Under the pieces are notes generated by a model. That model was not told where the DNA came from. It did no database searches and was given only the letters and a program-made list of their open reading frames with translations. From NCBI GenBank assembly GCA_050084515.1, contig CM114271.1, positions 21,080,001-21,144,000 of the forward strand: DNA of 64,000 nt, in the 5' to 3' direction. Both the position numbers and the translations under genes were made by a program. This document shows, one piece after another, positions 2,761 to 46,855 of the stretch. Source of the stretch: Blasia pusilla. Taxonomy: Eukaryota. How positions within the stretch are numbered: position 1 is the stretch's first letter; each line of letters begins with the position of its first letter.

Positions 2761-3875
2761 GTAGTTGCTGCCAATGTAGAAGGAATATTGGAAGTTAAAC
2801 ACATGAGACAATGCCAAACCTTATAGCTTTATTTAAGGTTATAAATGCACATTTACAGGCAAGTTGTATTGAGCAGAACTTTCACGCGGGATTGAACATC
2901 TCCTCCACCACGTAGTGCTTCCTTTAGCTAGATGATCAATGTACTATTACCCACCTAGGAGCTACTAACTTGAGTGTGAATTTCTTGAAGTTGGGTGTGA
3001 ATAACGCCCATATTAGCTGCAATGCCATCAATATCCTTTTGCAAACCTCCAGCCTTTACTAAGATAGCACTCACGATAGTAACCAAATTGTGTTCCACGC
3101 CTTCACTAAGACAATGTTCTCTAAGAGAGGAGGTGATCACATCAATTGATCCAGCTCCTTGTTTATTGATCGACTGAAGCTCTTGACTAACATTCACCAC
3201 GAGTGGAAGTGATTTTCGGGGCGGGATGACATTTTTGAGTTGCGATATGAACAATAGATTCTATAGCTCCTAGTCTATGCTCCAAAAGAAACATCCAAAT
3301 ACCACATGCTTGTGTTTGTGCACAAGAAACTTGATCTTTGATACTCATCTTCTCAAAATCCATGGCAGACATCCCCATAAAAGCATCTCCACCTTGCCAA
3401 ACTATGAACTTGGGAACATTCCGAGGTGTGTGTTCAACCACATCATGATTGATTAAGCCCAAAAAAAAATCAACTTTGTCAATGATCCGTGCTCACCACA
3501 TACATGATTAGTGAATGTCCGGATGTTGCCTTGTGGCTCCACTATCCTATTGTAGTTTCCCATTTGTCTACTTCCCGTGAAGATACTAATTGGGTGTGTA
3601 TATCGCCTTGCCTTATTGGAAACTACTTGCACAACCCTAGCCTTCACCCATGTGGGAGAGAATGCCATATTGGCTACCCTTTAATTTTGCTCCAATATAG
3701 TCAATTTTGACACGCCCATCCCTTGCCTTGGCAACATGCTTGGAAACGCTTCGATTCAGACTAAAAATCAGCGTCCGTGCCTCCCTATCTTCAGCCGCCA
3801 ATGCTAACCCTTCTAAGGTTTCCCGCCTATTTCTACTCTTCCACCTTCAACAACTCCATGCAACCACATCCCGTG

Positions 3876-3982
3876 TGTCATGCGAATCCACATCGTCATA
3901 CAACATACATCGCTGACATACCATACTCACATACATACATAACATAGACGAGAGCATCCACAAACACAAGTGTACCACAACT
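3876..3982 (-). repeat. Element A repeat B2 (3' terminal)
   Basis: Direct copy of 4352-4458 lying outside the LTR-like A2 repeat; ends ...CGCATGACA in element sense. Confidence 0.9.
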
Positions 3983-4349
3983 GAAATCCGTGAAAGACCT
4001 ATTGTCATAAAACACTTATAGAATCACATACAATCGAGCCAAACCCACTCCATGATGGGAGAATCCAGGTCAAAGCTTGCGGAAACCACCATAGCCAAGA
4101 GCTCTACTCACTACCAAGGCTAACTCCCAACGCAATAGGCTCAACTCAAAGAACTAATTGTTCTTTGAGTGCACTCCACACTATATCCTCCAACCTAAGA
4201 GCGGGCCCTATTGGAAAAGTCACCCTCAACTGAGTAATCCCCAACCCTATGTATGAAACCGCATCTCTACCTGGACACTATGGCCCTACATAAGGTATGG
4301 CCTCTACTAGCACACTATACTCTACGACATAATCCGTATGGTCATGACA
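3982..4349 (-). repeat. Element A repeat A2 (LTR-like)
   Basis: Ungapped match to 22028-22395, about 25 mismatches in 368 nt by hand (~93%); starts TGTCATGAC in element sense. Confidence 0.95.
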
Positions 4350-4351
4350 CT

Positions 4352-4458
4352 TGTCGTACAAATCTACATTATCATACAACATACATCGTTGACATACCAT
4401 ACTTACATACATACATAACATAGATGAGAGCATCCACAAACACAAGTGTACCACAACT
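4352..4458 (-). repeat. Element A repeat B1 (internal)
   Basis: Copy of 3876-3982; joined to A2 by ...TACGACA-AG-TGTCATG in element sense. Confidence 0.9.
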
Positions 4459-4656
4459 CGTCCCCCTAACTGGCGGTTAGGTCCCTCTAACTCCCAGGTA
4501 GCCCTATACATCTACTACATGCTATACACCTTAGTGGGTGCACGAACCTACAAATCGATGGTCGATAACCTCCACCCCGAATGGTTGCCTACCGCAACGT
4601 ATCCCTGTGTTGAGCAATGGCAAGATTCTCCAACCAAACCAAAGATTCTCAAAGAT

Positions 4657-5330
4657 TCTCAGCCAAACCATCCGCCTCTAGATGATCTCGAGACGTGGTC
4701 CGATGATCAATCAACGCCTTGTCACACAAGACCTGAAACTCACCCTGAAAAAATGTACCTAGTAGTCGACAAGACGGTGAGTTGGTGCTTCAAAATGACT
4801 AAGCACTCTATCAAGAAATGCATACGCCGTTCCCTCACTTGCCTTGTCAGGTAATGCCACCAACTCAACCAACTTGGAGAAGTGCTCCACCATCACCAAC
4901 ACATATCGATGATGTCATACAGTCAACGGTAACGGTCCCGCAAAGTCCACACTCCAACGGTAACCCAGCCCCATAATAGGCAAGGGGTGTAACTGTGGTG
5001 TAGGGGCATTGAATGATGCCCTCACCCGGTCATAAACCATACAATGTGACACCAACTGCTGCACCTGAGTATGCATGCCATGCCACCAATACTGACCAAG
5101 GAGTAAGCTATACGTACGCTTTACCCCAAAATGTCCCAACTCCTCATGGGCATGTCACACAATGCGCTCTCTCTGAGCCAAATGCGGCACTACTCGTACT
5201 CTACCATCCTTCCACACACGGAGAATATGTGTTCCCTCCAATCGATACCTCTTAGCACGTCGAAGAACATGGTCTCGCTCCTTGGCACTCACTATGCCTG
5301 GCACCCTACTGGTCAGTAGGAACTCTAACA
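4657..5330 (-). pseudogene. Element A DDE integrase, truncated just after the catalytic E
   Basis: HEELGHFGVKRTY...CMVY (decayed HHCC), WSVDFAGP, ...DHRTTSRDHLEADGLAE; homology to element B is lost after this point (no C-terminus or PHD). Confidence 0.85.
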
Positions 5331-6960
5331 CCAATGCATCATCATGAATATCACGCTCATCCATACCACCATCTCCAACCTTAGGATCTGAAGGCTGGCC
5401 ATCTACCCTCTGACTAGAGTAAGATGTCATGTTGTCCTCTATACTAGAATCCACCCCTAACCAACATAAAAAGTCAGATGCATGCCAACCTATAACCATC
5501 TCCTCATCAACCTCGCCATGCCATCTAGCCCCAGTTGCATCCTCTTGGCTAGTACATGGGTTCCTACTCAACCCATCAGCATCAAGGTTGGAAACTCCAA
5601 GTCTATGTACCACATAGAAGTCATACTCCTGTAAGATAAGAGCCCACCGTGCAAGCTTCCCTATAAGCTTGTTAGACTCCATCAACCACTTGAGCGGCTG
5701 GTGATCAGTAACAAGGGTAAATTGTAAGCCAAACAAGTAACACCTAAAGTGTGCCACAACCCACACTACTGCCAAGCACTCTCCCTCATATGAACTATAG
5801 CGCGAATCCACTGCATTATTCGAACGACTTGCATAGGCCACCACAAACTCCATGTGCTCATCATCATGTTGTGTCAACACCGCTCCAAGTCCCAGCCTAC
5901 TCCAATCAGTGTGTAATTGAAATGGGCGCCCTCTGATAGGTCTCCTCAAGATAGGCGCCGTCACCAACTGGGCCTTGAGCTCCACAAAAGCTCTCTCTTG
6001 ATCATCTCCCCAGTGCCACTCCTGATCTGATTTCAACAATTGGTTCAAAGCCTTTGCCATAGCACTAAATCCCTTCACATACCTCCAATAGTAGTTCGCC
6101 AATCCCATGAATGCCCGAACTCTAGTCACATCTACCGGACAAGGAATAAGTGCAATAGCCTCCACCTTTGCTTGCTGAACTCCCAAACCACCTAGATAGA
6201 TCACATGACCAAAGTACTCAACATCCTCATGGAAGAACTTACACTTTCTTGGATGCAAACGTAGACCATGAGCTTTCAACCGCTCAAACACAATATGCAA
6301 ATGTATATGATGCTTCTCCGCGGTGTTATTGAACACCAAGATATCATCAATATAACACCGAACAAAATCCAACCCTACTAAGATCTTGTCCATCACTCTC
6401 TGAAACTCGGTAGGTGCATTCTTCAACCCAAAGGGTAAGAATTTCCACTGGTACAAACAATCCTTGCCATGAAAGTTGACACCCCAAAATGCTGTCTTGG
6501 CCTTGTCACTATCTTGAATTGGCAACTGATGGTATTGTGCCCCAAGATCCAAAGTATTGAAAATCTTTGCCTGTCCCACCACATCAAAGATCTCCTCAGG
6601 TGTAGGCATGGCATACCTATCGGCCTTGGTCTGGCGATTGATTGGACGATAATCTCCACACATCCGCCTATCTGTGTAGTTGCCATGCACATCCTTTCTA
6701 GCAGGCATGACAGTGGCTGATGCATACTCTCGATGCGACAACTCCACTAATCCAGCCTCCAAAAGGTCCAACGTCCTACTCTGAATCAGGTCCCTCTCCA
6801 TATCACTATATCAATAGGGACGACGGAAGATTGGCGAATCACTAGCCAAATCAATCCGTATACCGGGTCTAATCAAAGCACCCAACTCCTTCATGCTAAA
6901 GGCAAAACAACTCCTATAAGCACGTAGGAATTGTGTCAAGCGTCGTTTCTCACCTCCCCT
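5155..6960 (-). pseudogene. Element A reverse transcriptase + RNase H (548-aa ORF 5155-6801)
   Basis: RMCGDYRPIN, LPFGLKNAP, YIDD; RNase H LHTDWS, YEGECLAVV, TDHQPL, DADGLSR. Gypsy-type RT-RH-IN order. Confidence 0.95.
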
Positions 6961-7259
6961 AAGCTTGGGCCGAAGTAATGGCTCCCAAGTCTCCTTCACT
7001 GGCACACTAGAGGGAGAGGACGACGCCATTGGTTGCTAGGCAACCCCCTCACAAGATGGTACATCCTTAGCTACACCATCATCTGAGCAAATAACTCCTC
7101 CACCAGCATGAGCAACCAACTCCACATGCCCAGCCATTACATCCCATTTACTCCAAGGATGCAAAATACTATTCTCCTCGCCCCCAGACGATTTCTCTAC
7201 CGTTCCGATAGCCATCGAGCTCATCACAAGGGGTGGAAGAACCATAGACATAGTCCGAA

Positions 7260-8235
7260 GTTGACGCTGCTTGGCCATCCCAAGACTCAAAATCCAGGTC
7301 AAAAAATTCAGGTCCATGGCCTGACCCAACAGATGACGTCGTGAAGCCTAAAAAATGGAAGCAACCGCTGTCACACCAGTAGCAAATCCCATCGCACGCT
7401 CTCTCTCATCAGCGTTAGGCTCCACCAACTGTCGCACATGAGAATCCCATACAAGCCCGTGACCACCTTCCCTGTAGGCATGTGATGAGGGAAAACTCAC
7501 AAATATGGGTAGTGCCATCCTAGGTTGGCCCACACGACTCACCACTGCCATGGATGACCAATCAATAACCCTCACCACCTGAGAAAGTCGCCCAATATCC
7601 AAGATACTATCCACTGTAGGGCAAGGATCCCGCTGCACTGCATCATATGCTCGACGTAGAACCTCCCTAGGCAACAAGTTTGTCCACCACAAGCGTGGAC
7701 GATGTGCACGCGAGCCAACTCGCGCTGCATCCAACAACACCGCTGGTCCAGTCCAAGACCGCACCTCATGAACACTCGCCATCATCCGGGTCCGAGTGTC
7801 ACCCAACAATGGAACATTCTCTAGAATGTAAGTTGGAGCACATGCTTGATGAACCTGAAGATGTCGTAACACCTGTAACATCTCCCAAAACAATCGAGAC
7901 CTAGGGTTGTGTAATCCCTCACCACGACTAGCACGTGTATGAACATGACATGGCCATCTAGCAATCACCAAATCCACAGGACCAACCCTCTCAAGGTCAT
8001 GCGCCCCCAACAATGCAATGTGTGACGGCAAAGCACGCTGGTACCCACGAATAGTTGATGGCGGCAACAACTCAAGATATCTCCGCATCAACTGACCAAT
8101 ATATCGGGATGAGACTCTCTGGGCCGTCTCATCTCGCTCCACATACACGTATCTCCACACAAGAATACCGGCCTGCAACACTGCAGCCAAACCAGTGCTA
8201 ATCCCACCGAAGAGATCTAACACACAAATGCCCTC
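7260..8235 (-). pseudogene. Element A C5 cytosine DNA methyltransferase domain (DNMT3-like, unpermuted)
   Basis: Motif I VLDLFGGI, II YVERD, IV DLVIA(R)WPC, VI ILENV, VIII RAHRPRLWWTN, IX ERERAMGF, X LLGQAMD (after a frameshift in an A-run near 7350). Confidence 0.92.
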
Positions 8236-8394
8236 CGGCGGATACTACCATATAATGGGTGTAGTATCCAAAGGGGATAACCCAACTGGACCAGAAGTAG
8301 GAGTCCGCCATTGGACCTCCTCTTCCTTGTGAGGTATAATAGCCTCACACCAAGCCTCCTACACTAGGCGATCAGCCTCATGCCGAAGTGCACC

Positions 8395-8880
8395 TGTCAC
8401 ATCTGAGTAGCCGATAGGCCGAGATCTATCGTAGATAGGGCATAGGAGCCAACGGACTATCTTGATTGTAACTTTGTCCCATAGTGTCGGATGAGGTTGA
8501 GGATAGGTCCATTGTGTCAGGAACGTTGTTTCTGACAACTTTCATGTTGAGGTCGTTCACAACCGGATGACTTGTTGACCAGGTCACCCGCCCTTGGTAA
8601 CCTGTGCGCGCAGGTTACCAAGGGGAGAGTTATTTTTAGGGCAAGAGCCAAAAGGCTCTTCCCAACCCTATATAAGAGAGGAAGGTGGCTTTCCTAAGCC
8701 ATCTTTCTCATGTTGGGCCGTTGGAGCACCTCTCTTGTATGTGTGTGAGATAAGACTAGGGTGCTAGCGTCCGGATTCCTTGATAGCATAGGGTGGATAA
8801 GGCTCGATATGTCAATGTAGATTGAGGAGTGGAGTTTTAGGCCGGATGTGCCATTTTTACTACTCTTTATTTTTACATGA
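8395..8880 (+). repeat. Element B repeat A1 (LTR-like)
   Basis: Near-identical to 17325-17808; TATA-like CTATATAAG at ~8668. Confidence 0.95.
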
Positions 8881-9612
8881 GAAAGATGTCAGGGGGCTGG
8901 TGGGATTTGTTGTTTGCAGGTAGGCAAGCGAGTTGCCTTGGTCGGGAGCCTGTGGAGACGTTGGTTGGCGTTGTATTTGTCATTTTTCTGTTTGGAAGAT
9001 TGTGTGCGGGAGCGCTGCTCATTTTTCTCAGAATTTTGCGGGTAACGGATTAGAGTAGAGCAGCATCAGAGTGGCGGACAGGGTGCTTGAGTGTAGCACA
9101 GAGTGTAGCATTGACGGGAGAACGGCCCATGTCGAGAAAGGAGGGCTTTACCTTGCAGTTGCCTGGGGGCTGTTAAGTAAAGACGGCTAGCTAGGTCGCG
9201 GCCGGTCTAGGGTTAGGTCACGGGCGAGGGACCGGAGGACCACAAAGTTGGAAGCCAAGGGTCGCAAGGTTGCAGACAGGCAGACGAGACGAGAGAAGGA
9301 GCCGCGTGGCAATAGGGGGGGGGGCAGCGCATAGGGTCGTGTGCCCACATGCTGATGGCTGAGAGCCGGGCAGCAAGGCAGAGTATGCCGAAGCCGGGCA
9401 ACTGCATAGGGCAGCGAACGGGGTCCGAAGGAGTTGAGGACGCACAAGGGAATCCACAAGCTAGGGCGCCGGGTTGCGAGAGTAGTAGCCAGAAGCTGAG
9501 AGTGTGAAGCTGGGATTAGGGGTACAAACGCATAGGGCTACGTGCCCTCCACGGGCCCTGTAGGCCCAAGGCCGCGGTAGAGAGAGGGTCGCGGGAACTG
9601 AGGAGTTCCTAA

Positions 9613-10004
9613 GGATGAGGTTGAGGATAGGTCCATTGTGTCAGGAACGTCGTTTCTGACAACTTTCATGTTGAGGTCTTTTACAGTCGGGTGACTTGTT
9701 GACCAAGTCACCCGCCCCTGGTAACGTGTGCGCGCAGGTTACCAAGGGGAGGGCTATTTTTAGGGAAAGAGCCAAAAGGCTCTTCCCAACCCTATATAAG
9801 AGAGGAAGGTGGCTTTCCTGAGCCATCTTTCTCATGTTGGGCCGTTGGAGCACCTCTCTTGTATGTGTGTGAGATAGGACTAGGGTGCTAGCGTCTGGAT
9901 TCCTTGATAGCACAGGGTGGACAAGGCTCGATATGTCGATGTAGATTGAGGAGTGGAGTTTTAGGCCGGATGTGCCATTTTTACTACTCTTTATTTTTAC
10001 ATGA
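9613..10004 (+). repeat. Extra internal, 5'-truncated copy of element B repeat A
   Basis: GGATGAGGTTGAGGATAGG...TTTTTACATGA matches 8489-8880. Confidence 0.92.
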
Positions 10005-10668
10005 TGCTACCCCCCCCCTTCTTTTGGACGTGGTTGCGTGGGTGCGCATGGGCAACGTGGTGGAGTTGCAGGGGCTGAACGTGGTAGCGGAGTCCGACAT
10101 GGTACCACAGTTGGAGGGAGTGACGTGGTAAAGTCAGATGTAGTCGGAAGGGAAGACATGGTTGGGATCCGACCTGGGTTATATGCCGCGTGTGGGGATG
10201 GACGGAGAGGTTTGCGCGACATGATGTTTTTGGGGCGCGACCAGGCGTTGCGAGAGTTGACGATGGAGGGGCGGTGCGCATGATGCCGACAGGTTGTCCG
10301 CATTTGTTGACGGGAGGATCGACGTGTTGGTGCAGGAGAGTGTTGTGTTGCAGAGATTATCATATCACGTGGAGGAGTGTATGTTGACGGTGCAGCAGGT
10401 TGGAGGGCGTGATTAGGTTATCCATTCGAGTCCCTTTTCCCGCACTTGTCGTGTATGATTGAGAGTGTTGGGTATCGGGTAGTAGTTGGTGCTAGGTGGG
10501 TGCAGCGATGGTGATGAGTGTAGATTATTTTCATGTGTAGCATGTTGGTGGATATACGGCGGTTACCAGTGAAGAGCTACCTCGACATCCATCTGTGGCT
10601 GGATCGTCATCACTAGACACTCGGTTTGGTGATGAGATCGCAGACAGAGAGAGTAGTACTTGGGAGGA

Positions 10669-12990
10669 GATGGACGACATGGGCCATCGGGGCATGCGTC
10701 GTTTCTCGGGTGCAAAGGGCACCATCGACTTAGATGATTTTATCTAGGAGTTTGACACGTGGTGCGACTTCCAAGAGATACGCACCCCGACACGGTTCAA
10801 CCCTGTCATGGCATGGAAGGGGTTGTTCCAACACTTGGAGGGTCCTCCGATGGATGACTACATGGAGTTTTGATCACTATATTCAGTAGAGATCGATGCC
10901 TGGAGGATGTATTGGGCTCCAGGCATGTGTCCACTGGTGGTCGTGAGGCATATGATGGGATTGTGAGAGGAGAGAGACCCACACCATCAGCCCGATGACT
11001 AGATGGAGAGTAGGGTAGTGAGACAGGCGATGTGGTAGAGACCTCTGGTGGTAGAGGGCCACCTAGCTTCAGCCCCACAGTGGAGTTCTTCTGACAGTTG
11101 GGGAAGAGCTACCAGGGCGTACGCACTGACAAGCTGAAGGGTCTAAAGGATTTTCAACGACGATTGGGTGAGAGTCTGAGAGATGCATTCACACGCATGA
11201 GGAGGCTGATCATTGCTACGTACGGAGTGACTGAGGCGCAGTCACTCAAGTATTGGTACGGGGTTCTGGACCGAGAACTACGGAGGAGAGTCCGAGATGC
11301 GGTGCTGATTCACACAACGAGGCCACATTGAAGGTGGTCTTTGAGTTGTCTGAGCGTATTGAGCTCAACATGAGTGAGGAGCAAGTAGTGATCGCTGGAT
11401 TTTCTCGAGAGTCGACAGGTCCACGAGCGACGGTGACCCCACAGGTGCCACATCGAGCACCAGTACCACGAGAGCGGGCCAGTGTGCCCAGAGAGCAGGG
11501 CGGGTACCGTGAGCCTATGAGGCAACGACCCGTACCTACATATGTTGGTCTTGTTGGACGTGTGGAGGGGCCCATAGGCAAAGAGACTTCCCACAGCATG
11601 GAAGAGGACCACCAGCGCCTCCGATTGCTCAGGAGCCATAGAGGATGACCCCACCATAGCACTTGTGTGACTATTGCCACAGATATGGTCACACTAGGGA
11701 TAGATGTTTGACCTTTGCCGAGGGGCACGTCTAGAGGTATGCCGAGGGCCTAAGGGCGGTCGTCCTGGAGGAGGTCAGGGAGTCCTTCCTGGACGTGGTG
11801 GTAGAGGACCACCACCAGCCAGAGGAGATGGAGTAGGAGCACCAGAGCCAAAACTTCTCTCACACATCGATCAGTTGGAGCAGAGGATTGCTGCCATGAC
11901 GATGATTAGGGAAGGCACAGAGCTGGAGCAGCTAGTGTGACTCCAACTTCTACCTCTTACCCTAACCCGGGTGAGGATCTGCCAGTATGGGATTTATGTG
12001 TAGTGCAGCCCAGGTTGAGGCAGCAGCAATGGTGACTCGGGGTGCTGCGAGAGGCATTGAGCCATCGAGAGGTGGAGTTGAGATTGACCCACCAGAGGGG
12101 ACCGATGGGCGGCAGGCGAGGGTTCCACAATCATTCACATTGTCGGAGGCACTACACACTAGTGGTGCCTACAACTCAGGCACCTACGTTGACGTCACAA
12201 GGAGTTGGAGTGACAACTCCTATGCCGGCTTGAGTGGAGTCAGTGTCAACCATAGTGTTGGAGGTGGCCACCAGAGTGAGTCAGACTCCACTATTTTCTG
12301 CCATAGAGTTGGCGACGTTGGGAGTCGGACCAGTTGAGGTGTTTCGATTGGCGCCATGTTGTGTGAGCGTGGAGAGATGACTGCTTCTTGTTCAGAGGTA
12401 GTTGAGGAGGTGGTGGACTTGCCCTCAGAGCCGGTGCTCGGGATGTTTCCCACAGAGTCATGGCATGCGGCGGTGGCAAAGTTGGTAGATATGCCAGCTC
12501 GACCGGCCATAGAGCAAGCAGTGGTAACACTTGGAGTAGTGTTACTGGATAACCGAGCTGGAGTATTTTGCTTGGTTAGTCCGACAGGGATAGTATACCA
12601 CCCGTAGCGCGTCCTACTTGATTCGGGAGCGCAACCTTTGATGTTAGGGAAGGCGGCGTGTTTAGCGTTGGGATTAGGGAAGGCCGATATTGAGCCTTGT
12701 CCCTTCCAGATACAGACCTCGATTGGGGGCGTGTCATCCACGCAATATATGACTTGAAAAGAGATAGTTGTCAGAGTCCAGCCAGAGCATGCGATGGATA
12801 GTGCTATGGTGCGCACACGTTCGATTACTACACCAGCTGAGTCGTACAATATGTTGGTAGGAAGTACAGTGTTATATCCCCTAGGATTCATCCTAGACTT
12901 CTGGGAGGAGACCGTTGTTTATCGACCAGGGTGGCGGTCAGGTGACAGCCGGATGAGTCAGTTATCCTTGCAGTTTGCGGGACGAGGTGG
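10669..12990 (+). pseudogene. Element B gag (zinc knuckles) + aspartic protease
   Basis: EFDTWCD...AWKGLFQHLEGPPMD shared with A; CX2CX4HX4C knuckle CDYCHRYGHTRDRC at ~11666; protease LLDSGAQPLML at ~12615 and YNMLVG. Confidence 0.85.
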
Positions 12991-13074
12991 TCGATAACGA
13001 AGTGAGTCTGTGATCACGTTGGCGGTAGTGATCCTGCAACTAACACTTCCTAAGGTGAGTCTGTGATCACGTTT

Positions 13075-13790
13075 GTGATTGCTGGATGGCCATGTGAGGG
13101 TCATTCATCAGCTGGCCGAGGATTCGGATTGCAGGATCCGAGGTCAAGGATGTTTTGGGAGATGCTGCGAGTAGTATGACACTTGCAGGAGAGTCAGACA
13201 TGTTCTCCAACGTATATCTTGGAGAATGTGCCATTGTTGGAAGACACTTGTGCACGTGTGATGACAAGTGTGTATCAGGTGAGGTCCTGGTTGGGACCTA
13301 CTGTATTATTAGATGCGGCGAGAGTTGGATCACGTGCCCATCGTCCACGACTTTGGTGGACAAACCTGATACCATCAGAGGTATTGAGTCGAGCATACGA
13401 TGGAGTCCAGAGAGCACCACATCTCACAATGGATGCTATTTTGGGCTCAGGGCGTCGATCTCAGGTGGTGACACGGGATGATAGACCACCGTTGGCCATG
13501 GCCAATAGGGTGGGGGAGTTGAGGGCAGCCTTACCTACGTTGGTGAGCTTACCAGCATCCCATGCCTTTCGTCAGGGAGGGCAAGGCATGATTTGGGATG
13601 AGGTGACTGGAGCATTGGAGGAGCCTACAGCAGATGAGCGCGAGCGCGCCATGGGGTTCGCTACTGGTACTACGGCGGTGCCAGGGATGACTGAGGCATC
13701 CCGGTGACAGGTGTTGGGGTAGGCGATGGACCTCAACTGTCTCACATGGATAGTCAGCCTAGGTATGGCTGAGCAGAGACGGATGCGAGT
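13075..13790 (+). pseudogene. Element B DNMT domain, motifs IV-X only
   Basis: VIAGWPCEGH, ILENV, RAHRPRLWWTN, ERERAMGF, LG*AMD; motifs I-III are deleted. Confidence 0.9.
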
Positions 13791-14069
13791 GTCATCCATG
13801 CCGTCACGTCCACGAGTTGGACCATTGCCCTCGAAGTGGTCATACGAGGCATTGGTGGGGCGAGACGAGGAGAGATAGGCACCCATGGACTTCCTGGGAC
13901 GTCGTTCAAGCAGAGAGTGCAAAGGCGGCGAGAGTAGCACATGTTCATTTTTGGATGCGGAGCATAGTGTAGGAGGTCTGAGTGGAGTGGCTGTTGCGGA
14001 GGTTGCTAGGGTTGCTACATATCAACCAAAGCCGGAGGTTGCGTCCTCTCCGAGTGAGGTCACGATGGA

Positions 14070-15480
14070 GACTTGGGAGCCTGTGATAGGTCTCAAGTTG
14101 ATAGGAGGAGAGCGACGTCGAGTTCATAGGTTTCTGAGAGGGCATGTCAGTTGTTTTGCCTTCAGTATGAGAGACTTGGGTACGCTGAAGGGTCCCGGGA
14201 TACGAATTGAGTTGGCTAGTGATATGCCGATCTTTCGTCGACCCTACAGGTATTCTGATATGGAGCAAGCCTTGATTTGAGCAAGAGTCAGGACTTGTTG
14301 GAGGCAGGACTTGTGGAGTTATCACATGGGGAGTATGCATCTGCCACAGTCATGTTGGCAAAGAAGGATATGTGTGGCAATTGGACGGATAGCTAAGCGG
14401 ATCTGTGGAGATTACCATCCTATCAACCGATCAGATCGGTACGCCATGCCTACTCCTGATGAGATCTTTGATGCGGTAGGGCATGCAAAGATCTTCAGTA
14501 CTTTAGATCTCCGTGCTGGCTATAATCAGCTTCCTATCAAGTGGGATAGATCGGTTCGGGAGAGATTGCTTGTATCAGTGGCGGTTCTTACCATTTGGGT
14601 TGAAGAACGCGCCTGTAGAGTTTCAGAGAGTAATGGATAGGATTTTGGCTGGCTTGGATTTTGTACGATGTTACATAGATGATATTCTTATCTTCAGTTC
14701 CACGGTTGAGGAGCATGAGCGACACTTGGAGGAGGTGTTTCGGCGATTGCGGTTACATGGACTAAAGTTACATCCAGGCAAGTGCAGATTCTTTCAAGAG
14801 TAGAATGAGTACTTGGGACACACTATATACCCGAGTGGGTCAGGCGTTTAGCAGACGAAGGTAGAGGCTATTGCATAGATTCCACGCCCTACAGATGTGA
14901 GTCGAGTTCGAGTATTTCTTGGACTGGAGAACTTGTATCGACGGTATGTCAAGGGTTTTAGTGCGATCGCAAAGTCTTTGACCTTGTTGACGAGACTTGA
15001 TCAGGTTTGGTTATGGGGAGATGATCAGGAGAAAGCATTTCAGGAGCTCAAGGATAGGTTGACGTCCTCACCCATTTTACACAGACCGGTTAGGGGTCGC
15101 CCATTCCTGTTACATACGGATTGGAGCATGTTGGGTCTAGGAGCAATGCTTACTCAAAGGGATGACGAGGAGAGGGAGTTCGTTGTGGCTTATGCGAGCC
15201 GATCGAACAACATTGCAGAGGCAAAGTAAAGCTCCTATGAGGGAGAGTGCTTGGCTGTAGTGTGGGCCGTGGCACATTTCAGGTGCTATTTATTTGGAAA
15301 CTCTTTCACACTTATCACTGATCATCAGCCGTTGAGGTGGTTGATGGAGTCCGACAAGCTTACGAGAAAGCTTGCCAAGTGGGCTCTATTACTACAGGAG
15401 TATGAGTTGAGGTGGTTCATAGGTCAGGTCGGCTGAACCAGGATGCCAATGGGTTGAGTTGTAACCCATGTCCGAGTCAA
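14070..15480 (+). pseudogene. Element B reverse transcriptase + RNase H
   Basis: ICGDYHPIN, STLDLRAGYNQL, LPFGLKNAP, YIDD, LHTDWS, TDHQPL; several stops and frameshifts. Confidence 0.93.
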
Positions 15481-15699
15481 AGAGACAACACAGGAGCTCG
15501 ATGGCACGGAGAGAGTGATGAGGAGATGGTGCCCGGTTGGCATGCATCTGCCTATCTTTGTTGGTTGACTATGGCGTGTCACCACGGTGATGACTCGGTG
15601 GTGGGGTTGGATGATGAGTCTTTGGATCCGGAGGTAAGTGAGGGCGACTGGTGGTCGTGATATCCATGACGACGTGGAGGTTGTGGAGTTCTTGCGACC

Positions 15700-16920
15700 T
15701 TTGGCGTCATTGCGAGTCTGATGAGTGCTAGGGAGCGGGATCGGATCCTATAGAGAGCCAAAAGGTTCAGGTGGGAGGGGACTCACATTTTGCGGGTATG
15801 GGGAGATGGTAGGATATGAGTGGTACCTCATCCTTCCCAGCGAGCACGTGTACTACGACATGCCCATGAGGAGTTGGGACATTTCGGAGTAAAGCGTACT
15901 TACAGCTTACTCCAGGTTCAGTATTGGTGGTGCGGCATGCATATTGGGGTACAACAGTTTGTGGCCAGATGTATGGTATGTGACAGAGTGCGAGCATCCT
16001 TCAATGCTCCCACTCCGCAGTTACATCCTTTTCCGATTATGGGTTTAGGTTATCGGTGGAGTTTAGACTTTGCGGGACCTTTGCCATTGACGGGGCGTCA
16101 TCATAGGTACGTGTTGGTCATGGTGGAGCATTTCTCCAAGTGGATAGAGTTGGTGGCACTACCAGACAAGGCAAGCGAGGGAACAACTTATGCGTTTCTA
16201 GATTGTGTGCTTAGTCACTTTGGTGCACCGGCGGAGGTGTTGACTGACCAGGGTACCGAGTTCAGGGGAGAGTTTCAGGCCTTGTGTGATGAGGCGTTGA
16301 TAGATCACCGCACCACGTCCAGAGATCATCTAGAGGTGGATGGGTTGGCGGAGAGAGTGGTATAGACGGTGAAGAGAGGATTACGCAAGTATGGCTTGCA
16401 GCAGGGACAGTTGAGGGAGTGGGACCTACAGTTGCCACGGTTGGCTATGGGTTATCGCTTTAGTCGGCAGGCATCCTTGACGTCGTTTTCACTGTATTTT
16501 TTGCTCTTTGGGAGAGAGCCAGATTTACTTGCAGCGATTCGACGTGACATGGCGGAGGTGTTAGATCTTGATGATCCAGATGTGTGGGTACAAGCATGTT
16601 CTTAGAGGGCGGAGGTTTTTCGTAGAGTTATGCCTATGGCCTTTGAGAACTTAGCTATTGCCCAACATAGAGATACGTTGAGGTACGCGACCATTTGTGG
16701 AGGAGGTTATCATCCAAGGATTAGGAGGTTTCATCTTGGAGATTAGGTGTATTTACAGCAAGTGGCACCCACTAGCGCTAGATCCTTTGCAGGCGCACGA
16801 TCCCGTGTGTGCGCGAGGTATTACCGACCAGAGTCCTCATGTTGGAGGGACGGGATGGTATGGTTTGGAAGGATCATGTGCACAATTGTGTGCCATGTCA
16901 TCTTTCAAACGTAGATGGGA
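15700..16920 (+). pseudogene. Element B DDE integrase
   Basis: HAHEELGH...CMVC zinc domain; catalytic D-D-E in WSLDFAGP, LTDQGTEF and GLAERVV. Confidence 0.93.
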
Positions 16921-16961
16921 CGGTGGATCCGAGCTTGGCAGTAGTACCTACAGGCTTGAGG

Positions 16962-17108
16962 TGTATGTTGTGCGGATCTGCGAGGGATGTAGCCACCATG
17001 TTGGTATGTGATGGTTGTTCTCGAGGGTGGCAGATGTCATGTCTGACCCCCCTCAGACATGACATCTGCCATGTCACGGGATGATGGATGTGTCCGAGAT
17101 GTGTATAG
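16962..17108 (+). pseudogene. PHD finger at the C-terminus of the element B polyprotein
   Basis: CMLC...MLVCDGCSRGW(Q)MSCL...WMCPRC fits the C4-H-C3 pattern with His replaced by Gln and one internal stop. Confidence 0.85.
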
Positions 17109-17184
17109 GGTAGTAGGTCATGTCAGAGAGATGCGATATTTTATATCTGGAGTTGGGGGGATCCAACTGCCAGCTAGGAAGGCG

Positions 17185-17322
17185 GTTGTGTGATCTCCAT
17201 GTATTTGTATGAGTTGATTTTTGTACATGTGTGGATCGACCCGTGTTTGGGGAAGATCGGTGTTGTGTGGTGTAGATGTAACCAGCGATGTATGTTGTGT
17301 AGCGATATGTATGCGCACGATA
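17185..17322 (+). repeat. Element B repeat B1 (internal)
   Basis: 17282-17320 recurs at 17834-17872. The 5' limit is inferred from homology to the A-element B1 boundary. Junction to A2 is ...CACGATA-GC-TGTCAC. Confidence 0.7.
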
Positions 17323-17324
17323 GC

Positions 17325-17808
17325 TGTCACGTCTGAGTAGCCGAAAGGTCGAGATCTATCGTGGATAGGGCGTAGGAGCCAACGGACTATCTTGAGTGTA
17401 ACTTTGTCCCACGGTGTCGGATGAGGTTGAGAATAGGTCCATTGTGTCAGGAACATCGTTTTTGACAACTTTCATGTTGAGGTCTTTCACAGCTGGATGA
17501 CTTGTTGACCAAGTCACCCGCCCCTGGTGACCTGTGCGCGCAGGTTACCAAGGGGAGGGCTATTTTTAGGGGAAGAGCCAAAAGGCTCTTCCCAACCCTA
17601 TATAAGAGAGGAAGGTGGCTTTCCTAAGTCATCTTTCTCATGTTGGGTCGTTGGAGCACCTCTCTTGTATGTGTGTGAGATAGGACTAGGGTGCTAGCGT
17701 CTGGATTCCTTGATAGCACAGGGTGGACGAGGCTCGATATGTCGATGTAGATTGAGGAGTGGAGTTTTAGGCCGGATATGCCATTTTTACTACTCTTTAT
17801 TTTTCATG
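17325..17808 (+). repeat. Element B repeat A2 (LTR-like)
   Basis: Matches 8395-8879. Confidence 0.95.
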
Positions 17809-17833
17809 TAAAAATAAAGAGTAGTAAAAATTG

Positions 17834-17872
17834 CCAACGATGTATGTTGTGTAGCAAGATGTATGCGCACGA
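17834..17872 (+). repeat. Element B repeat B2 (truncated, 3' terminal)
   Basis: CCAACGATGTATGTTGTGTAGCAAGATGTATGCGCACGA vs CCAGCGATGTATGTTGTGTAGCGATATGTATGCGCACGA at 17282. Confidence 0.85.
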
Positions 17873-18227
17873 GTGGTCACATCAGCCGAGTCGTATGATG
17901 TACTAGTTGGAGGATCTATTGTACCCGATGGGTTTTTAGATGGACTACTAGACTGAGACAGCGTCTTATAGACCTGGTTGGCAGTCCAGGGATGGACATA
18001 TGAGCCAGGTTCCTTTGAGATTTATTTATGGGGCTTGACCAGGAGGGTCTTCCCCAACGGTGTTAGCATCTGTGGCTAGTTTTAGTGGAGTAGTCACTTG
18101 GCCATGAGACTTTTTGGAGGGTAATCTTTTTGCTATGGATTCTCCTGTGCATGAGGAGGTAGAGGAGGTCCCTAGTCTTGCAGCAGTGGCATCCTCATCG
18201 TTGGATGTGCCACTTTGGAGTTCATGT
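17873..18227 (+). other. Inverted segment of element A (protease C-terminus and spacer)
   Basis: Plus-strand VVTSAESYDVLVGG...VPLWSSC bridges minus-strand DSSRLGVP (ending ~18228) and GALRHEADRLV (starting 8394), in the same order as in element C. Confidence 0.85.
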
Positions 18228-20350
18228 AGGTACTCCCAACCGGGAGCTATCAGTTGCATGATCTGGTCTCAACTATACATACAACTTCTCCCGTGTCATG
18301 AATTGAGACCTATCATTGGCTCCTCCAAGTGATGTTTGAATCTGGAATGGGCAAGGCTCAAGCTCTGACCTCCGAATACCCAAACCAATACATGCCGCCT
18401 TTCCCAACATCAAAGGTTGGGCACCAGAGTCTAAGAAGACTCTATGTGGTCTGTCTTGTAGGACTCTCCAATCGGAATATCCCACTCCGGTTGTCCAACA
18501 TAGATACACCATGTGTAAGCCTCTCACAATCAATGGTTGGCTGGGCTGGTAATGCATCCATCTTCGCCACTGCTGCCTGCCAAGTAGCATTGGTACTCAA
18601 TGCTACACCTGACATAGAGGGTCGCTCCACCGCAACACCCTTATCCACCTCAACATGTATAGTAGTAACACCCCCACGTTCACACAACGTGGCTGCTAGC
18701 TGAAATACAGGAGCTAAGTCAACTCCTAAAGCCATCAGATCCGTGGTTGAAAACAATGGCGATCCCAACACTAAAGTTGCCATCCACGATATTGCACTCG
18801 ATGCTGCATCCGTGTCTACTACACGCGATGTAGATGCCTCAATCCCCACTGTAGGCTCAATAGGTTGCGTAGGAACCATGGATGGAGTCCTAAGGACCTC
18901 AAACAACAAGAATGACTGGGGAAGCCTAGCCTGCCTCCCAGCCTCACCCCTCTGTGGGTCCAACTCCACAGTAGCACCATATGGCTCTGACGCTCGAGTG
19001 GCTCCTCTTGTAACTGCAGCTGATGCCTCAATGTGTGTTGCAATCGCCATATAAGAGAGATCGTCCCCTCCATAAGAGGTGGAAGCCCCTGAACCCGAAC
19101 CTGTTCTATGCTGGATACCAGCCATAGTAGCCAACTTCTGCTCCAACTGCTCAATCCTGGCAGCCATAATTGACTTTGTCATAGTGGTAGGGGTAGCCGT
19201 TGTAGGCTCTCCAACCACTGGTCCATCTCTACCACCCCTACCACCTTGGCCTCTTGGAGCTACTCCACCACGGCCGCGGCCTGATCTCAACTCTGGATGA
19301 AGATCAAAGCAACGCTCTCGAGGATGACCTGGTCTCCCGCAATGATCACACTAAGTTAGGGCCGACTGAGGCCCATCCTCCAAAGTCCGTCTCCCATCCT
19401 CTTGGAGACAAAACCTCCTAACATGATCATCTCCACATGTCCAACATGATTGTCCTTGCTGCGGGGCAGCAAATGAAGGCAATGGTCTCTACGCAAGTGT
19501 CCCTCTAGGACCTGACTGAGGTCGTGTGTACCCCCCACGACTCTCACTACTACTACCACCATCACTACTACAAGACTGTGAGGTGGATTGCTGAACACGA
19601 GAAGTAGTAGTTGTATCCCTACTGAATGCGGATGTCACCACTCTCTCCTCCACCATGTTAAGCTCAATCTTCTCACATAGAGCAAACACATGGGTCAATG
19701 TGGGTGAATCATCCCTCATAAGAGTAGCATCACGTGCCTGCGACGCAACTCTCTCGCCCAAGATCCCATACCAAAATCGGATGCTCGAGCCTCGGTCACA
19801 CCTAGGTAATGAAATCAAGCATTGCATACGAAAGAGTGTATGCCTCACGAAGACTCTCACCGGTCTTTCGCTCAAATTCTTGAAGACTCTCAACTTCTCT
19901 GTCTTCACTCCTGATAGTTCTTCTTCAACCTCTTGAAGAACTCGCAACCGGTTGAACGATGATGGGGCACTAGTACCTCCACTAGTACCCCACCGGTACC
20001 TCCATGGGTACCCACCCGGCTCGCACTGCACCACTTGGTGGCATATTAGAGCACTACTACCAATACCACCATGGATGATAGACACATAGCATGGAGACCA
20101 ATATTATCTCCACGCCTCAATCTCAACAACATGATCCTTCCTAAACTCATGGTTATCATCCATGGGTGGTCCCTCCAAGTGCTGAAACAACCCCTTCCAA
20201 GCCAAGAAGGGTGTAAACAACGTGGCGTTCTGCAACATCTGCATATCACACCACGTATCAAACTCCTGAATGAAGTCCTCCAACTCAATGGTGGAGAGTA
20301 TTGTCGTGGGCCCTTCATGGCCCCATATATCCCGTCCATGTCCCAAATCA
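18228..20350 (-). pseudogene. Element A gag (two zinc knuckles) + protease N-half
   Basis: EDFIQEFDTWCD, AWKGLFQHLEGPPMDD; knuckles CWTCGDDHVRRFC (19408-19446) and CDHCGRPGHPRERC (19309-19350); RGG-rich linker; protease FLDSGAQPLML. Confidence 0.88.
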
Positions 20351-22027
20351 ATGGAGCTGCAACACTCAATAACAACATAGAAGACTCGGTGTTTGGAACA
20401 CCCTCGTCCTCCTCTTCATCAACCGTCGAAAGTGGGAAAGGTAGCCGATACTTCAATCCACTCCGTGTAAAACCACCACTGTCCGCACCACGGTCCTCAA
20501 CCAGATCAACAGACAACTCCGTAATGACCAATTCCGATGCCGCACCACCACCAAATCACCACCACTAAGTAACCAAGTGACGTCGATGTTGCTGTACTAT
20601 TCTAGCTCTACTAGCTATGGGTGTAGGCAACCTAACCTGTCATCACCACAAGAAGCCTCCCACGGTCTACTGGTTATCACTCCAACCTCACTACCGGTAG
20701 CATACAAGAGTAAAACTACTCTGGAAAGCAGCGTCAACCCTAACAATGGGCACGCAAGCAAGAAGCAATGATGGAGGGGATCCAAACACAGGAAGTCCAA
20801 CGACAACCCTCCAATCGCAAATGGAAATCAAGGTAACACAATCCACCAAACGTGGCGCCCCCTAAATCCACAGAACCCACCACACAATTCTAACGCAATA
20901 GCTACTCCGCCGCTGGTCGATGACGTGCTAGTCGGACTCGCAGCACCTGAAAATATCACATGCATGGAGAGGCTACACCGTACTATACGCTAGAGGTCCA
21001 TCAACCAAAAACCTGAGATGCATAAAGCGCCTAACACATCTCCGAACATCACCAAATGAGCTACACCAATGTGTACACTGGCATAATTAAGAACTCAGCA
21101 GTTAAGCATCTTCCAAGCAGAATAGCCCAAAGATGGGTGACCAATTATGCAATACTCAACTAAGAAATCTGCAAAAACTACCTCACGCCCAAGCAAGCAT
21201 GCTTGCTCGCTTGCTTCTTGCTCCTTACTCCGCCTCTCACGCCCACTCGCCCCGAGCTACCACGAGTTGCCTCGAAGCCTCAAAACGCCGAGACATGCCC
21301 CGTTTGCCATGCTTCGCTATGGAAAGAGGCCCAACCAGAGCGCCCCCAATGGGATAGGCTTTCCAACAACGGACGAATCACCAACCAACCAGCCCCTCCA
21401 ATCTGCTGTCCACCATAGCCACACCTTGAGCTAGTCCAAAATTTCGATCAGCAATCACTCCATAAATAGTCAACCAAAATTGAATTTGTTTCAACTAGAA
21501 TTCAATTAGCCGCCATAGCTATCTCTCCACAAAAATCAGCTACAACCAAAATCTGTACTCCGAGCTAAAAATCAGACAAACTTGCTATCCATACACCTCC
21601 AGAATCGTAAATCCGACAGCGCTTCCGCCCAGATTCATGCACACAGAAATCCGCAATGCTCCATACACTCAAGCAGATAGCTTCACATGAGATCACAATA
21701 CAGGTAGCAACAGAAACCTCTCACCCAATCTGGATGAACTTCAACAGAGCTTCCGCACTCCAAGCTCTCCACATCAGAAAACCGTCAAACACAAATCAGA
21801 ATCTTCAATCCTTGATAACTTCCAACTCCCTTGACAAAATCCGGTGATCTAAAGCGCGTTGGAAAGCTCTCAACAAGGCGCTTCTTTCCAACCAACCACG
21901 CACCAGATTCACACCTCCAACATAGGCCACAAGCCACAAACATCCACGGCTGAGTACATAATCAGCCCTAACCAGATCCTACTGATCCATGATCGAAGCT
22001 ACCATCGATCTACTCTAGTTATTTGAG

Positions 22028-22395
22028 TGAAATCCTTGAAAGACCGACTATCATAAAACATATATAGAATCATATACAATCGAGCCAAACCCACTCCAAG
22101 ATGGGAGAATCCAGGTCGAAGCTTGGGGAAACCACCATAGCGAAGAGCTCTATTCACTACCAAGGCTAACTCCCAACGCAACAGGCTCAACTCAAAGAAC
22201 TAACAGTTCTTTGAGTGCACTCCACACTATATCCTCCAACCTAAGAGCCGGCCCTACTGGAAAAGTCACCCTCAACTAAGTAACCCCCGACCCTATGTAT
22301 GAAACCGTATCTCTACCTGGACACTACGGCCCTACATAAGGTATGGCCTCTGCTAGCACACTATACTTTATGACATAATCCGTATGGTCATGACA
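22028..22395 (-). repeat. Element A repeat A1 (5' LTR-like)
   Basis: Matches 3982-4349; followed in element sense by CTCAAATAACTAG, not by a TGG-type PBS. Confidence 0.95.
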
Positions 22396-22741
22396 AGTGC
22401 TTCTTCCATGCATACAAGAAACAATCTATCTTGCATAGTACCTAACCCCTAAGAGAACACAACCGGCCATACTGGTTGAAAGTATTTCAAGTACCTGCGA
22501 AGGCGATGGAAGGGGCTCCCTAAGTAAGCTTAAATAGTTCCTAGGGGGCCGTTACAGGGATAAATAATTAATCCCTAGGGGACCTCTTAAGCAACTACCT
22601 CTATTTCATATAGAATTGACTCTCGCTTAACCCATTATTGGAGGTTAGGGCTGAATAGACGTTGACCTAATACATAATTACGCCCCCCTACAAGCAATAA
22701 TTAATTCCCCCCTCTCAAAGGGCTGCAAACAAGATTTTGGG

Positions 22742-29172: not shown

Positions 29173-29384
29173 AATCGCTATAGCCTTGGCCATGGATATG
29201 TTGAATATTTGCAAATGCAAGCTTCAAGTGCCAAAAGACTTACCAAGTCCAAAAGAACGGAAAAAAAATTTCAATTAGTATCTCAAAATAGAAATGAAGT
29301 CAAAGGAGCTTTTCCCTTCTTGAGCCTCTCAAGTACAAAAGGTTGCATAACCTCTGATTCAAAGTAAATAGGTTACTTCCATCC

Positions 29385-29615
29385 AATTTAGTAACATCCT
29401 ACTTATTTAGGTCCTCTACATGGCTAAGAGGCCAATTGATTCTTTTGAATGAATGTTGTACAAAGGATATTGTAGAAGATTGGTCAATCAAGATCATCAG
29501 ATGATCTTGAGGTTGACCAATCTTCTACAATATCCTTTACAACATTCATTGAAAAGAATCAATTGGCTTGGAAGGACCTATGGTATAGCTAAATGATAGG
29601 ATGAATTACTAAATT
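29385..29615. repeat. 230-bp hairpin (MITE-like or small-RNA precursor-like)
   Basis: AAAGGATATTGTAGAAGATTGGTCAA-TCAAGATCATC / GATGATCTTGA-GG-TTGACCAATCTTCTACAATATCCTTT, near-perfect around centre ~29499. Confidence 0.85.
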
Positions 29616-44300: not shown

Positions 44301-44426
44301 TATATCAAGAAAACAGCCCAAGATCCGACCAGCGACCAGGTTAAGAATGCCAGTGTGGAATCTGCAGCTTCAGCTCCACATCGCGATTCTGCTCTTTCTT
44401 CAAATGCACATCATTCATCATCTTAG
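41381..44426 (+). CDS. NRT1/PTR family (NPF) transporter, NPF7-like, 4 exons, ~642 aa
   Basis: Exons 41381-41555, 41980-42197, 42597-43153 and 43448-44426 with GT-AG introns in consistent phase (1929 nt). Motifs TGGW, FFADSYLGR, AFGADQFD, FFNWFY, CTVTQVEE, EFFYDQAPD. Confidence 0.95.
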
Positions 44427-45949: not shown

Positions 45950-46855
45950 TGCGGGGCTCGAATGTGGTGTCGAGTATAATTCATATGTGAACACACACAA
46001 TTCTTTTAGTTTGATTATGTAACGGCCTCTAAAGATTTTTAAATGAAAGAATGAAAGTTCGTAGTTGTGTCACAATACCCTTCTATAAGGACTCAAATGT
46101 TCCCACGCGGTCAAGGCGGACCTATGTAAACACACGGAATTTGACAACGGAACGGCATCAAAAGAATTTTTAAATGAAAGTTTGTAGTTGTGCCACAATA
46201 CCCCTTTGATCGGGGCTCAAATGTGGGGTCAAGTAAAATTCCCATGCGGACAAGGCGGACATATGTGTTTACATATGTCCAATTATTTTAGCTTGGCAAC
46301 ATAACGTCCTCCGGGTGTGCCACTTTTGAAAGTTTGTAGTTGTGCCACAAGTTCCCACAACACCCCTTTCATCGGGGCTCAAATTTCGGGTCGAGTAAAA
46401 TTCCCACGCGGACAAGAGGGTCTTATGTACGGACATATGTAAACACACACAACCCTTTTAGCTTGACAATGTAACGGCCTCAAAAGATCTTTTAAATGAA
46501 AGTTTGTAGTTGTGCCACAACACCACTTTCATCGGGGCTCAAATGTAGGGTCGAGTAAAATTCCCACATGGACAAGGGGGTCATATGTACGCACATTTGC
46601 AAACATACACAACTCTTTTAGCTTGATAATGTAACGGCCTCAAAAGATCTCTTAAATGAAAGTTTGTAGTTGTGCCACAACACCACTTTCATCAGGGCTC
46701 AAATGTAGGGTCAAATAAAACTCCCATGCAGACAAGGGGGTCCTATGTACGGACATATGTAAACACACACAATTCTCTTAGCTTGAAAATTTAACGGCCT
46801 AAAAGATCTTTTAAATGAATGTTTGTAGTTGTGCCACAACACCCTTTTGATCAAA
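45950..46855 (+). repeat. Tandem repeat, about 6 copies of a ~160-bp unit
   Basis: GTTTGTAGTTGTGCCACAA, or a close variant, at ~46057, 46180, 46332, 46502, 46662 and 46821. Confidence 0.9.

Follow-up and report, generated by a model that had tools for sequence, protein, structure and literature searches.

A stretch of 64,000 nucleotides (nt) of the Blasia pusilla genome (assembly GCA_050084515.1, contig CM114271.1, positions 21,080,001 to 21,144,000 of the forward strand), here called the window and numbered from its first letter, carries two retrotransposons, elements A and B, whose direct repeats are split into two modules, likewise lettered A and B, and arranged in the order A1...B1-A2-B2. 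Both are Ty3/gypsy elements of the long terminal repeat (LTR) type and belong to a streptophyte lineage with a Dnmt3-like domain in Pol. Every well-preserved copy reads A1, then leader, gag, protease (PR), Dnmt3-like methyltransferase (DNMT), reverse transcriptase (RT), RNase H (RH), integrase (IN) and PHD finger, then a polypurine tract (PPT), B1, two nucleotides (NN), A2 and B2. While this layout was already known on a Gypsy body, the liverwort member is new, and its anatomy points to an undescribed integration route. In textbook LTR retrotransposons, the repeat that reverse transcription generates is bounded by the very ends on which integrase acts; in the lineage described here, repeat and integrase ends appear to be shifted against each other by one module. 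The reading that we favour, with a probability of about 0.5, is that reverse transcription would set B-NN-A as the LTR and that each inserted copy would be a circular permutation of the cDNA, with the integrase sites lying inside the LTR.

The A...B-A-B layout of both elements was first noticed in a preliminary description of this DNA, and comparison of the window with itself, combined with reading of the sequence, finds it to be real and correctly placed (Table 1). In element A the A1/A2 pair spans 368 nt at 93% identity and the B1/B2 pair 107 nt at 92% identity. The outer termini read TGTCATG at the start and CATGACA at the finish, and the internal junction reads GACA, AG, TGTCATG, the whole site being a palindrome of the form CA-NN-TG. 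Element B, which is nested within element A, has A repeats of 486 nt (A1 8394-8879, A2 17324-17808 in the alignment, the modules proper being taken from 8395 and 17325; 94% identity) that do not align with those of element A, as had been observed before, and its junction reads GATA, GC, TGTCACG with the GC spacer at 17323-17324. Its layout and its A repeats had been read correctly, its B repeats had not. B1 probably starts at ~17185, directly past the purine tract, and spans ~17185-17322, which is ~138 nt rather than 39, whereas B2 is a remnant of which only the last 39 nt are left (17834-17872); on its 5' side lies an inverted copy of the A end, 25 nt long (arms 17780-17804 and 17810-17834).

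The layout extends well beyond these two copies. Public metagenome contigs scanned with an RT-RH alignment yielded 79 loci (designated by L-numbers) with 38-84% RT identity to the window, and a relative was encoded in 529 of the 603 candidate stretches, which makes the family widespread in bryophyte-like metagenome contigs. Loci with matching repeat offsets and identities were counted once each (L009/L010, L007/L012, L054/L055/L061, L048/L049 and L066/L067), and L020, L022, L034, L035, L036, L042, L050, L052 and L064 were left out of the form counts, either because no B was found or because the 3' sequence was too short. By self-comparison and junction reading, 23 distinct elements from three clades retain B1-NN-A2: 17 have the complete B-NN-A-B, five are irregular (window element B, L009, L075, L013 and L008) and one, L029, is cut by the end of the locus. 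The design is common to three sequence-distinct clades, those of element A, of L055/L058 and of L048/L053, with RT identities across them of only 40-50% and with element B as a fourth variant. The spacer from CA to TG measures exactly 2 nt in 22 of the 23 elements, the junction being deleted in L008. Eight further distinct elements stop at B1 against unrelated sequence (L003, L012, L016, L045, L041, L056, L063 and L073). The 5' ends are uniform: all 18 read flank/A1-internal, with B neither following A1 nor, as a B of the same clade, preceding it, and an own-clade B is found upstream of 10 of 10 A2 starts compared with 0 of 18 5' ends. The identical LTRs at both ends that are the hallmark of Ty3/gypsy elements are absent, the 5' end carrying A only and the 3' end B-NN-A-B. 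Within elements the identities of the A1/A2 and B1/B2 pairs are alike (e.g. 93/92, 92/94 and 91/92%), which fits both pairs having been identical at insertion.

The simplest alternative, that conventional A+B LTR elements were altered by tandem insertion, deletion or assembly error, has some appeal given the age of the two window copies (93-94% repeat identity) and their nesting, and rearrangements are obvious in L008, L009, L013, L035 and L075. It is nevertheless barely credible, given that the layout, the 2-nt spacer and the PPT/B boundary recur in 23 distinct elements of three clades and that B is absent after A1 throughout the 18 5' ends. The preliminary description had named conventional LTRs, with A+B at both ends, as the finding that would overturn its view, and not one of these 5' ends has that structure. 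The A...B-A-B layout is a conserved design, not an accident of two copies. Three simpler parsings of the repeats were rejected as well. An A that is the whole LTR, with B unrelated to it, does not agree with the integrase end and the target-site duplication (TSD) borne by B2; a canonical A+B LTR that lost its 5' B is contradicted by the 18 of 18 5' ends; and a B1-ending ('Form-2') element inserted beside a solo A-B does not agree with a spacer of 2 nt and a TSD that flanks the whole unit. Among the irregular relatives, L009 (2936-7396, the same as L010) is a 4.4-kb short derivative without gag, PR and DNMT: A1 precedes RT by only ~630 nt, and B2 is cut after 56 nt. In two places (L055 2737-3200 and L068 5075-5602) elements of one clade directly abut B or A repeats of another, which, like element B inside element A, may reflect nesting or a preference for insertion into relatives.

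The integration signature is that of a DDE integrase. A 4-bp TSD is perfect in six of the ten elements in which both ends are visible (L058 CCAA, L076 TTTA, L053 AATA, L012 TACA, L045 TACA and L041 TTTT), matches at three of four positions in element A (CACT/CACG) and L055 and at two of four in L078; as a control, shifted flanks matched perfectly in 12 of 900 comparisons. The survey of layout and TSD across many copies that the preliminary description had suggested has returned 23 elements with B1-NN-A2 and a duplication of 4 bp. The unrelated insertions L012 and L045 share the TSD TACA, which may be a weak target preference or chance. The TG..CA ends, the 4-bp TSD and the rve domain together identify a DDE integrase and not a tyrosine recombinase. 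In line with this, no Phage_integrase-type match (E up to 0.05 or 0.01) was found among the 145 window open reading frames (ORFs) of at least 60 amino acids (aa), taken from six frames and covering elements A, B and C, and there is no tyrosine recombinase among 53 ORFs of at least 90 aa from the full-length relatives L045, L058 and L076; the rve-type integrase without a tyrosine recombinase that had been proposed for the window holds for both sets.

The split repeats as such are familiar from another order of elements. PAT-like and Ngaro elements have direct repeats in the order A1...B1-A2-B2 (PMC7192593, Fig. 1 legend), and the window elements resemble them in this respect and in an internal junction where the sequences of both outer ends recur side by side; unlike these tyrosine-recombinase elements, they have a DDE integrase, TG..CA ends and 4-bp TSDs. 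In the DIRS model as outlined in PMC7192593, site-specific recombination of a circle leaves one copy of the junction trinucleotide at each end and no duplication, whereas 4-bp duplications are present here. A layout typical of tyrosine-recombinase elements could also mean that the elements are moved in trans by the recombinase of true DIRS, PAT or Ngaro elements, their own integrase being a passenger, but the integrase domain is conserved across clades and no element examined has a tyrosine recombinase, which makes this very improbable. Troyka elements, with CG..CG termini and 3-bp TSDs according to PMC12440569, were considered and are not relevant.

Where reverse transcription would start and end is suggested by two sets of sequence features. 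The first is a G-rich purine tract that abuts the first base of B1, and not of A2, in all 32 loci listed. The second is a complementarity between the end of A1 and the interior of A. In element B, 8700-8713 (CATCTTTCTCATGT), located 31 nt downstream of the TATA box, is perfectly complementary over 14 nt to 8875-8888 (ACATG/AGAAAGATG) across the A1 end (0/300 shuffles). The L055 clade has a different sequence pair, AGTTTTTCTAGAATT with AAT/TCTAGAAAAACT, and runs of 15 nt in L057, 13 nt in L076 and 11 nt in L055 (0/300 shuffles each). Four members of element A's own clade (L012, L018, L069 and L029) have exact runs of 10-13 nt across the A1 end (0-2/300 shuffles); these measure 13 nt in L012 and 11 nt each in L018 and L069 (0/300 shuffles for each of the three), and in the latter two a 22-nt stretch matches at 21 of 22 positions as judged by eye. 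The register of the pairing is equal across the groups despite a different sequence in each clade: the start of the inner stretch lies 31-33 nt past the TATA box, which is invariant in ten aligned copies, and in this ten-copy alignment 91% of cells pair, compared with 36-62% when the partner is slid. TGG follows neither the A1 end nor the B1-NN junction. The complementarity of the A1 end to the A interior fits a putative self-priming site of the Tf1 type. Self-priming is a described feature of Tf1/Sushi and a predicted one of the plant Tcn1 clade (PMC6317226), and the likeness consists of a predicted RNA 5' stretch complementary to a site beside the 5' repeat, with no TGG-type tRNA site seen; the difference is that those elements have ordinary identical LTRs and a chromodomain, whereas the present lineage has split repeats and a C-terminal PHD finger.

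Taken together with the repeat layout, these features can be arranged into a replication cycle, which must depart from the textbook LTR scheme. A would carry the promoter, with transcription starting ~31 nt past its TATA box, and the first 9-15 nt of the RNA would pair with the site across the A1 end and prime the minus strand as in Tf1-type self-priming. The plus strand would begin at the polypurine tract, that is, at the first base of B. With plus-strand synthesis starting at the B start and minus-strand synthesis at the A end, the repeat made would be B-NN-A, and the linear cDNA would read (B-NN-A)-internal-PPT-(B-NN-A), its termini being the B start and the A end. The integrase sites would lie not at these termini but within the LTR, in the form of the CA-NN-TG palindrome. 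Integrase would open the palindrome of the upstream LTR and insert both halves, and the cDNA termini (A end and B start) would be joined together, either beforehand in a 2-LTR circle or later by host end-joining. The product, A-internal-PPT-B-NN-A/B, would hold the sealed 'circle junction' as its A2/B2 joint. In the variant that we favour, by inference only, the upstream repeat would become double-stranded well before the downstream one, so that its palindrome is engaged first, and the host would seal the cDNA termini. The copies ending at B1 could have arisen as dead-end by-products, as two-site products or from 1-LTR circles, or else by later B1 x B2 recombination. In foamy virus and HIV-1, integrase is reported to cut palindromic LTR-LTR junctions (PMC1180852, PMC1905944). 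The proposed internal cut at a CA...TG palindrome made of two integrase ends is akin to retroviral 2-LTR circles; in retroviruses, however, the junction exists in circles only and its role is debated, while here the palindrome is a permanent part of the genomic copy and the RNA, with 2 nt between CA and TG.

Irregular joints provide a further line of evidence. At the A2/B2 joint of element B the A end is whole, the 25-nt hairpin copy comes next and B is short by ~96 nt; at that of L075, only the first 74 nt of A remain and the B start is intact. Large irregularities exactly at this joint, with one side intact, fit the pattern expected of end joining after resection. In L013, B1-GC-A2 is followed by the putative PBS (primer-binding site) sequence and then by an inverted A(1-176), 94% complementary, which ends in CATGACA at the flank. 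This fits the product expected if plus-strand strong-stop DNA (B-NN-A-pbs) had snapped back on a complementary stretch in A.

The family is transcribed and abundant, with a depth of ~100 in three RNA runs. These raw runs, which bear the same species label, were mapped at 6-12% sampling to positions 3500-9600 of the window, a range that avoids the long internal repeats. Sense-strand depth in the three runs is 93-170 over the internal part, PPT, B1, NN and A2, drops to ~40 in 3908-4111 and to ~1 in 3704-3907; this pattern fits a transcript that ends near the A2 end without B2, for which it is only suggestive. Reads of the expressed subfamily lose their match exactly at 4458, the PPT/B1 boundary. 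Three peculiarities of the reads can be recorded alongside. In all three runs, 16-39 reads connect 4630 with 5391 through an insert of 23 other letters, and thus stem from an expressed family member that is without most of the integrase region. Other reads go back by 289, from 4316 to 4028, and point to expressed copies in which part of A is duplicated in tandem. Finally, 24 molecules in two of the runs start at 4188, immediately 5' of the sequence complementary to the A1 end.

Several observations weigh against the circular-permutation reading. A 2-LTR circle predicts the reciprocal form A-B-NN-A-internal equally often, and this was seen at 0 of 18 5' ends; the circular cDNA opened at its junction by integrase that the preliminary description had proposed accords with the PPT and the likely PBS, but in the plain form of a 2-LTR circle it is not supported by this count. 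The RNA reads are 90-99% alike and nearly all derive from other copies, so that the fall in depth may partly be divergence. As to the priming site, the pairing in the L055 clade has almost no covariation, with one pair changed on both sides and shuffles doing likewise; as within-clade covariation does not exceed that of shuffles, support for the pairing comes from the comparison between clades. Element A itself pairs 22017-22029 with 22190-22201 over 12 nt with one mismatch, its longest exact run being 7 nt (109/300 shuffles), and complementarity is weak in the old copies L045 (6 nt), L078 (5), L053 (7), L041 (7) and L060 (7). The pairing was found in three sequence-distinct groups, those of element A, of L055 and of element B, the third clade (L048, L053) not being among them. 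ARAGORN found no tRNA gene in the window or in 20 loci. Lastly, the TSD of element B matches at 0 of 4 positions and none is recognisable, the right end of this element being irregular.

The lack of the reciprocal permutation is explained without extra assumption by a linear copy-choice route, in which the ends are never joined. Here the minus strand, primed 3' of B1 on NN plus the A2 start, would copy B1, switch to a short B at the 3' end of the RNA and continue through A2, B1 and the internal part, a second jump via the A overlap giving A-internal-B-NN-A-B. The 2-nt spacer after CA would then resemble the usual gap between U5 and PBS, and the B1-ending copies (eight distinct loci, several with perfect TSDs) would be products made without the switch. 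We consider this route unlikely, since the conserved complementarity of the priming type is found at the A1 end and not past B1. Moreover, no primer was found for the start of A, which begins with TGT and not with the TGG expected opposite a tRNA 3' end, and the drop in RNA depth near the A2 end makes a B overlap at the RNA 3' end doubtful. The exact start of B at the polypurine tract and the PBS sequence after A2 in L013 are both left unexplained.

A DIRS-like route is in our view quite unlikely, and somewhat more so than copy choice. It would have a sub-genomic transcript give rise to single-stranded cDNA, the ends of which are restored and closed on internal B1-NN-A2 as a splint, in the manner of the internal complementary region of DIRS-1, the circle being linearised by integrase. 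PAT-like and Ngaro elements share the repeat layout, the internal complementary region of DIRS-1 has been shown to be essential (both PMC7192593), and B1-NN-A2 is covered by RNA. Against this, both boundaries of the repeats would already be explained by a polypurine tract and a putative PBS in canonical positions, 4-bp TSDs together with TG..CA ends suggest that integrase acted on normal double-stranded DNA, and a circle with two junctions again predicts the reciprocal form, which is not seen.

The coding content places the elements among Gypsy retrotransposons. Pfam searches of the 145 window ORFs identified RVT_1, RT_RNaseH, Integrase_H2C2 and rve, along with weak matches to an aspartyl protease, a C5 DNA methylase and a PHD finger. 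RVT_1, RT_RNaseH(_2), Integrase_H2C2 and rve occur in that order in element B, L045, L058 and the relatives P0001 and P0069, and the three full-length relatives (L045, L058 and L076) combine the Gypsy domain order with a clear C-terminal PHD finger. The integrase region of element A is degenerate; it is 76% complementary to the stretch of element B that covers most of the H2C2+rve ORF at 15820-16362. Behind the integrase, where chromoviruses have a chromodomain, the PHD finger lies at 12552-12902 in L045 (E 4e-8) and 12448-12795 in L076 (E 1e-9), and it may serve as a chromatin-targeting module. The best matches of the RT-RNase H ORF are liverwort proteins (Calypogeia 76%, Marchantia 79% over 77% of the query), with Klebsormidium (42-48% identity) and Closterium next among the matches to the window RT. 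The methyltransferase region of element A at 7351-8244 is degenerate and scores below the cut-off for PF00145 (E 0.001; 19 bits, cut-off 22). Over 250 aa it shares 69% identity (E 3e-119) with the part of Marchantia P0004 (Mp_2g26090) that passes PF00145 (DNA_methylase) at 29 bits. The motif WPCHVH in element A, compared with WPCQGH in the Marchantia relative, indicates a change to the catalytic PCQ motif of this aged element.

Judging from search hits and shared architecture, the window elements are relatives of KnitGypsy-Dnmt3 of Klebsormidium nitens, the repeat structure of which is 'the same as that of a DIRS retrotransposon' (de Mendoza et al. 2018, Nat Commun 9:1341, PMC5890265, Fig. 4c legend). 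This legend already provides a precedent outside tyrosine-recombinase elements, of which the preliminary description had taken the layout to be typical. The elements have in common the Gypsy domains, a Dnmt3-type methyltransferase in Pol upstream of RT and DIRS-like repeats on a Gypsy body; unlike KnitGypsy-Dnmt3 with its Klebsormidium host, the window elements are of liverwort type, their best matches being those of Calypogeia and Marchantia at 76-79%. A 2026 preprint (10.64898/2026.05.21.726589) refers to the lineage as Gypsy-DNMT3 of streptophytes. Apart from the 2018 legend and a one-line mention in this preprint, no other report of the layout on integrase elements was found in the literature; the text sections of PMC5890265 and the preprint passage do not include the polypurine tract, the spacer, the TSD, the priming site or a replication model, and no mechanism for a split-repeat Gypsy layout was found in print.

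Should the circular-permutation reading be true, integration of a DDE-integrase element would require the cDNA ends to be joined to each other, and a single explanation could cover the split repeats of DIRS-order elements and of this Gypsy lineage. TOC1 of Chlamydomonas is grouped with the PAT-like and Ngaro split-repeat elements. We suggest tentatively, the odds leaning slightly the other way, that integration proceeds via a built-in 'circle junction', leaving every copy with a sealed A2/B2 joint, and that this could link the origin of the PAT/Ngaro split repeats to the rules of polypurine tract and primer site. In practical terms, standard LTR finders that seek two identical terminal repeats will mis-annotate such elements and may either take B1...B2 or A1...A2 for the LTRs or assign a DIRS label.

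Table 1. Positions of retrotransposon features in the Blasia pusilla window
Feature	Position	Strand	Remarks
Element A	3876-22395	minus	reads A1-internal-B1-NN-A2-B2
TSD, 5' side of element A	22396-22399	minus	CACT
A1 of element A	22028-22395	minus	starts TGTCATG, the left integrase end
TATA-like GATATAG in A1 of element A	22227-22233	minus	
Stretch in A1 complementary to the putative PBS of element A	22190-22201	minus	
Putative self-priming PBS of element A, CA/CTCAAATAACT	22017-22029	minus	crosses the A1 end
Leader and gag-like ORFs of element A, 5' internal part	17873-22027	minus	without Pfam match
Dnmt3-like cytosine methyltransferase region, element A	7351-8244	minus	PF00145 and Marchantia match
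RT and RNase H ORF of element A, 551 aa	5158-6810	minus	RVT_1 9e-28, RT_RNaseH 8e-34
H2C2 zinc-binding domain, element A	4918-5154	minus	PF17921, E 6.7e-13
Integrase region of element A, degenerate	4784-5291	minus	
Polypurine tract of element A, ending TTAGGGGGACG	4459-4470	minus	abuts B1 on its 5' side
B1 of element A	4352-4458	minus	self-comparison and sequence reading
AG spacer, element A	4350-4351	minus	separates B1 end (CA) from A2 start (TG)
A2 of element A	3982-4349	minus	starts TGTCATG; A2/B2 joint at 3982
B2 of element A	3876-3982	minus	ends CATGACA, the right integrase end
TSD, 3' side of element A	3872-3875	minus	CACG; 3/4 bases same as CACT
Element B	8395-17872	plus	related element, same layout, nested within element A
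TATA box, element B	8669-8676	plus	inside promoter/priming region 8669-8888
RT, element B	14507-14800	plus	
RNase H, element B	14879-15433	plus	
Integrase (H2C2+rve ORF), element B	15820-16362	plus	
PHD finger, element B, weak	16782-17081	plus	
Purine tract, element B	17174-17184	plus	
Element C	from ~60314 to 64000	plus	third, more distant relative; runs past the window end
Aspartyl protease, element C, weak	61875-62123	plus	Pfam scan

The leader of element B contains a third, partial A copy at 9613-10004 (A positions 96-486), which shares 95-96% identity with A1 and A2, has no PBS sequence behind it and could be derived from an aberrant template switch or a partial insertion. For element C, a pattern search and reading of 58300-59020 gave nothing convincing as a 5' end. 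Elsewhere in the window, a POT/PTR2 peptide-transporter gene at 42579-44426 is present in two ORF pieces (PF00854, E 3e-35 and 1e-59), which are probably two exons of one host gene. It is followed at 45982-46853 by a tandem array whose units of roughly 160 bp are 70-80% identical, and two palindromic stretches, 27930-28375 (~450 nt) and 29349-29650 (~300 nt), are 75-80% self-complementary and lie in an AT-rich region.

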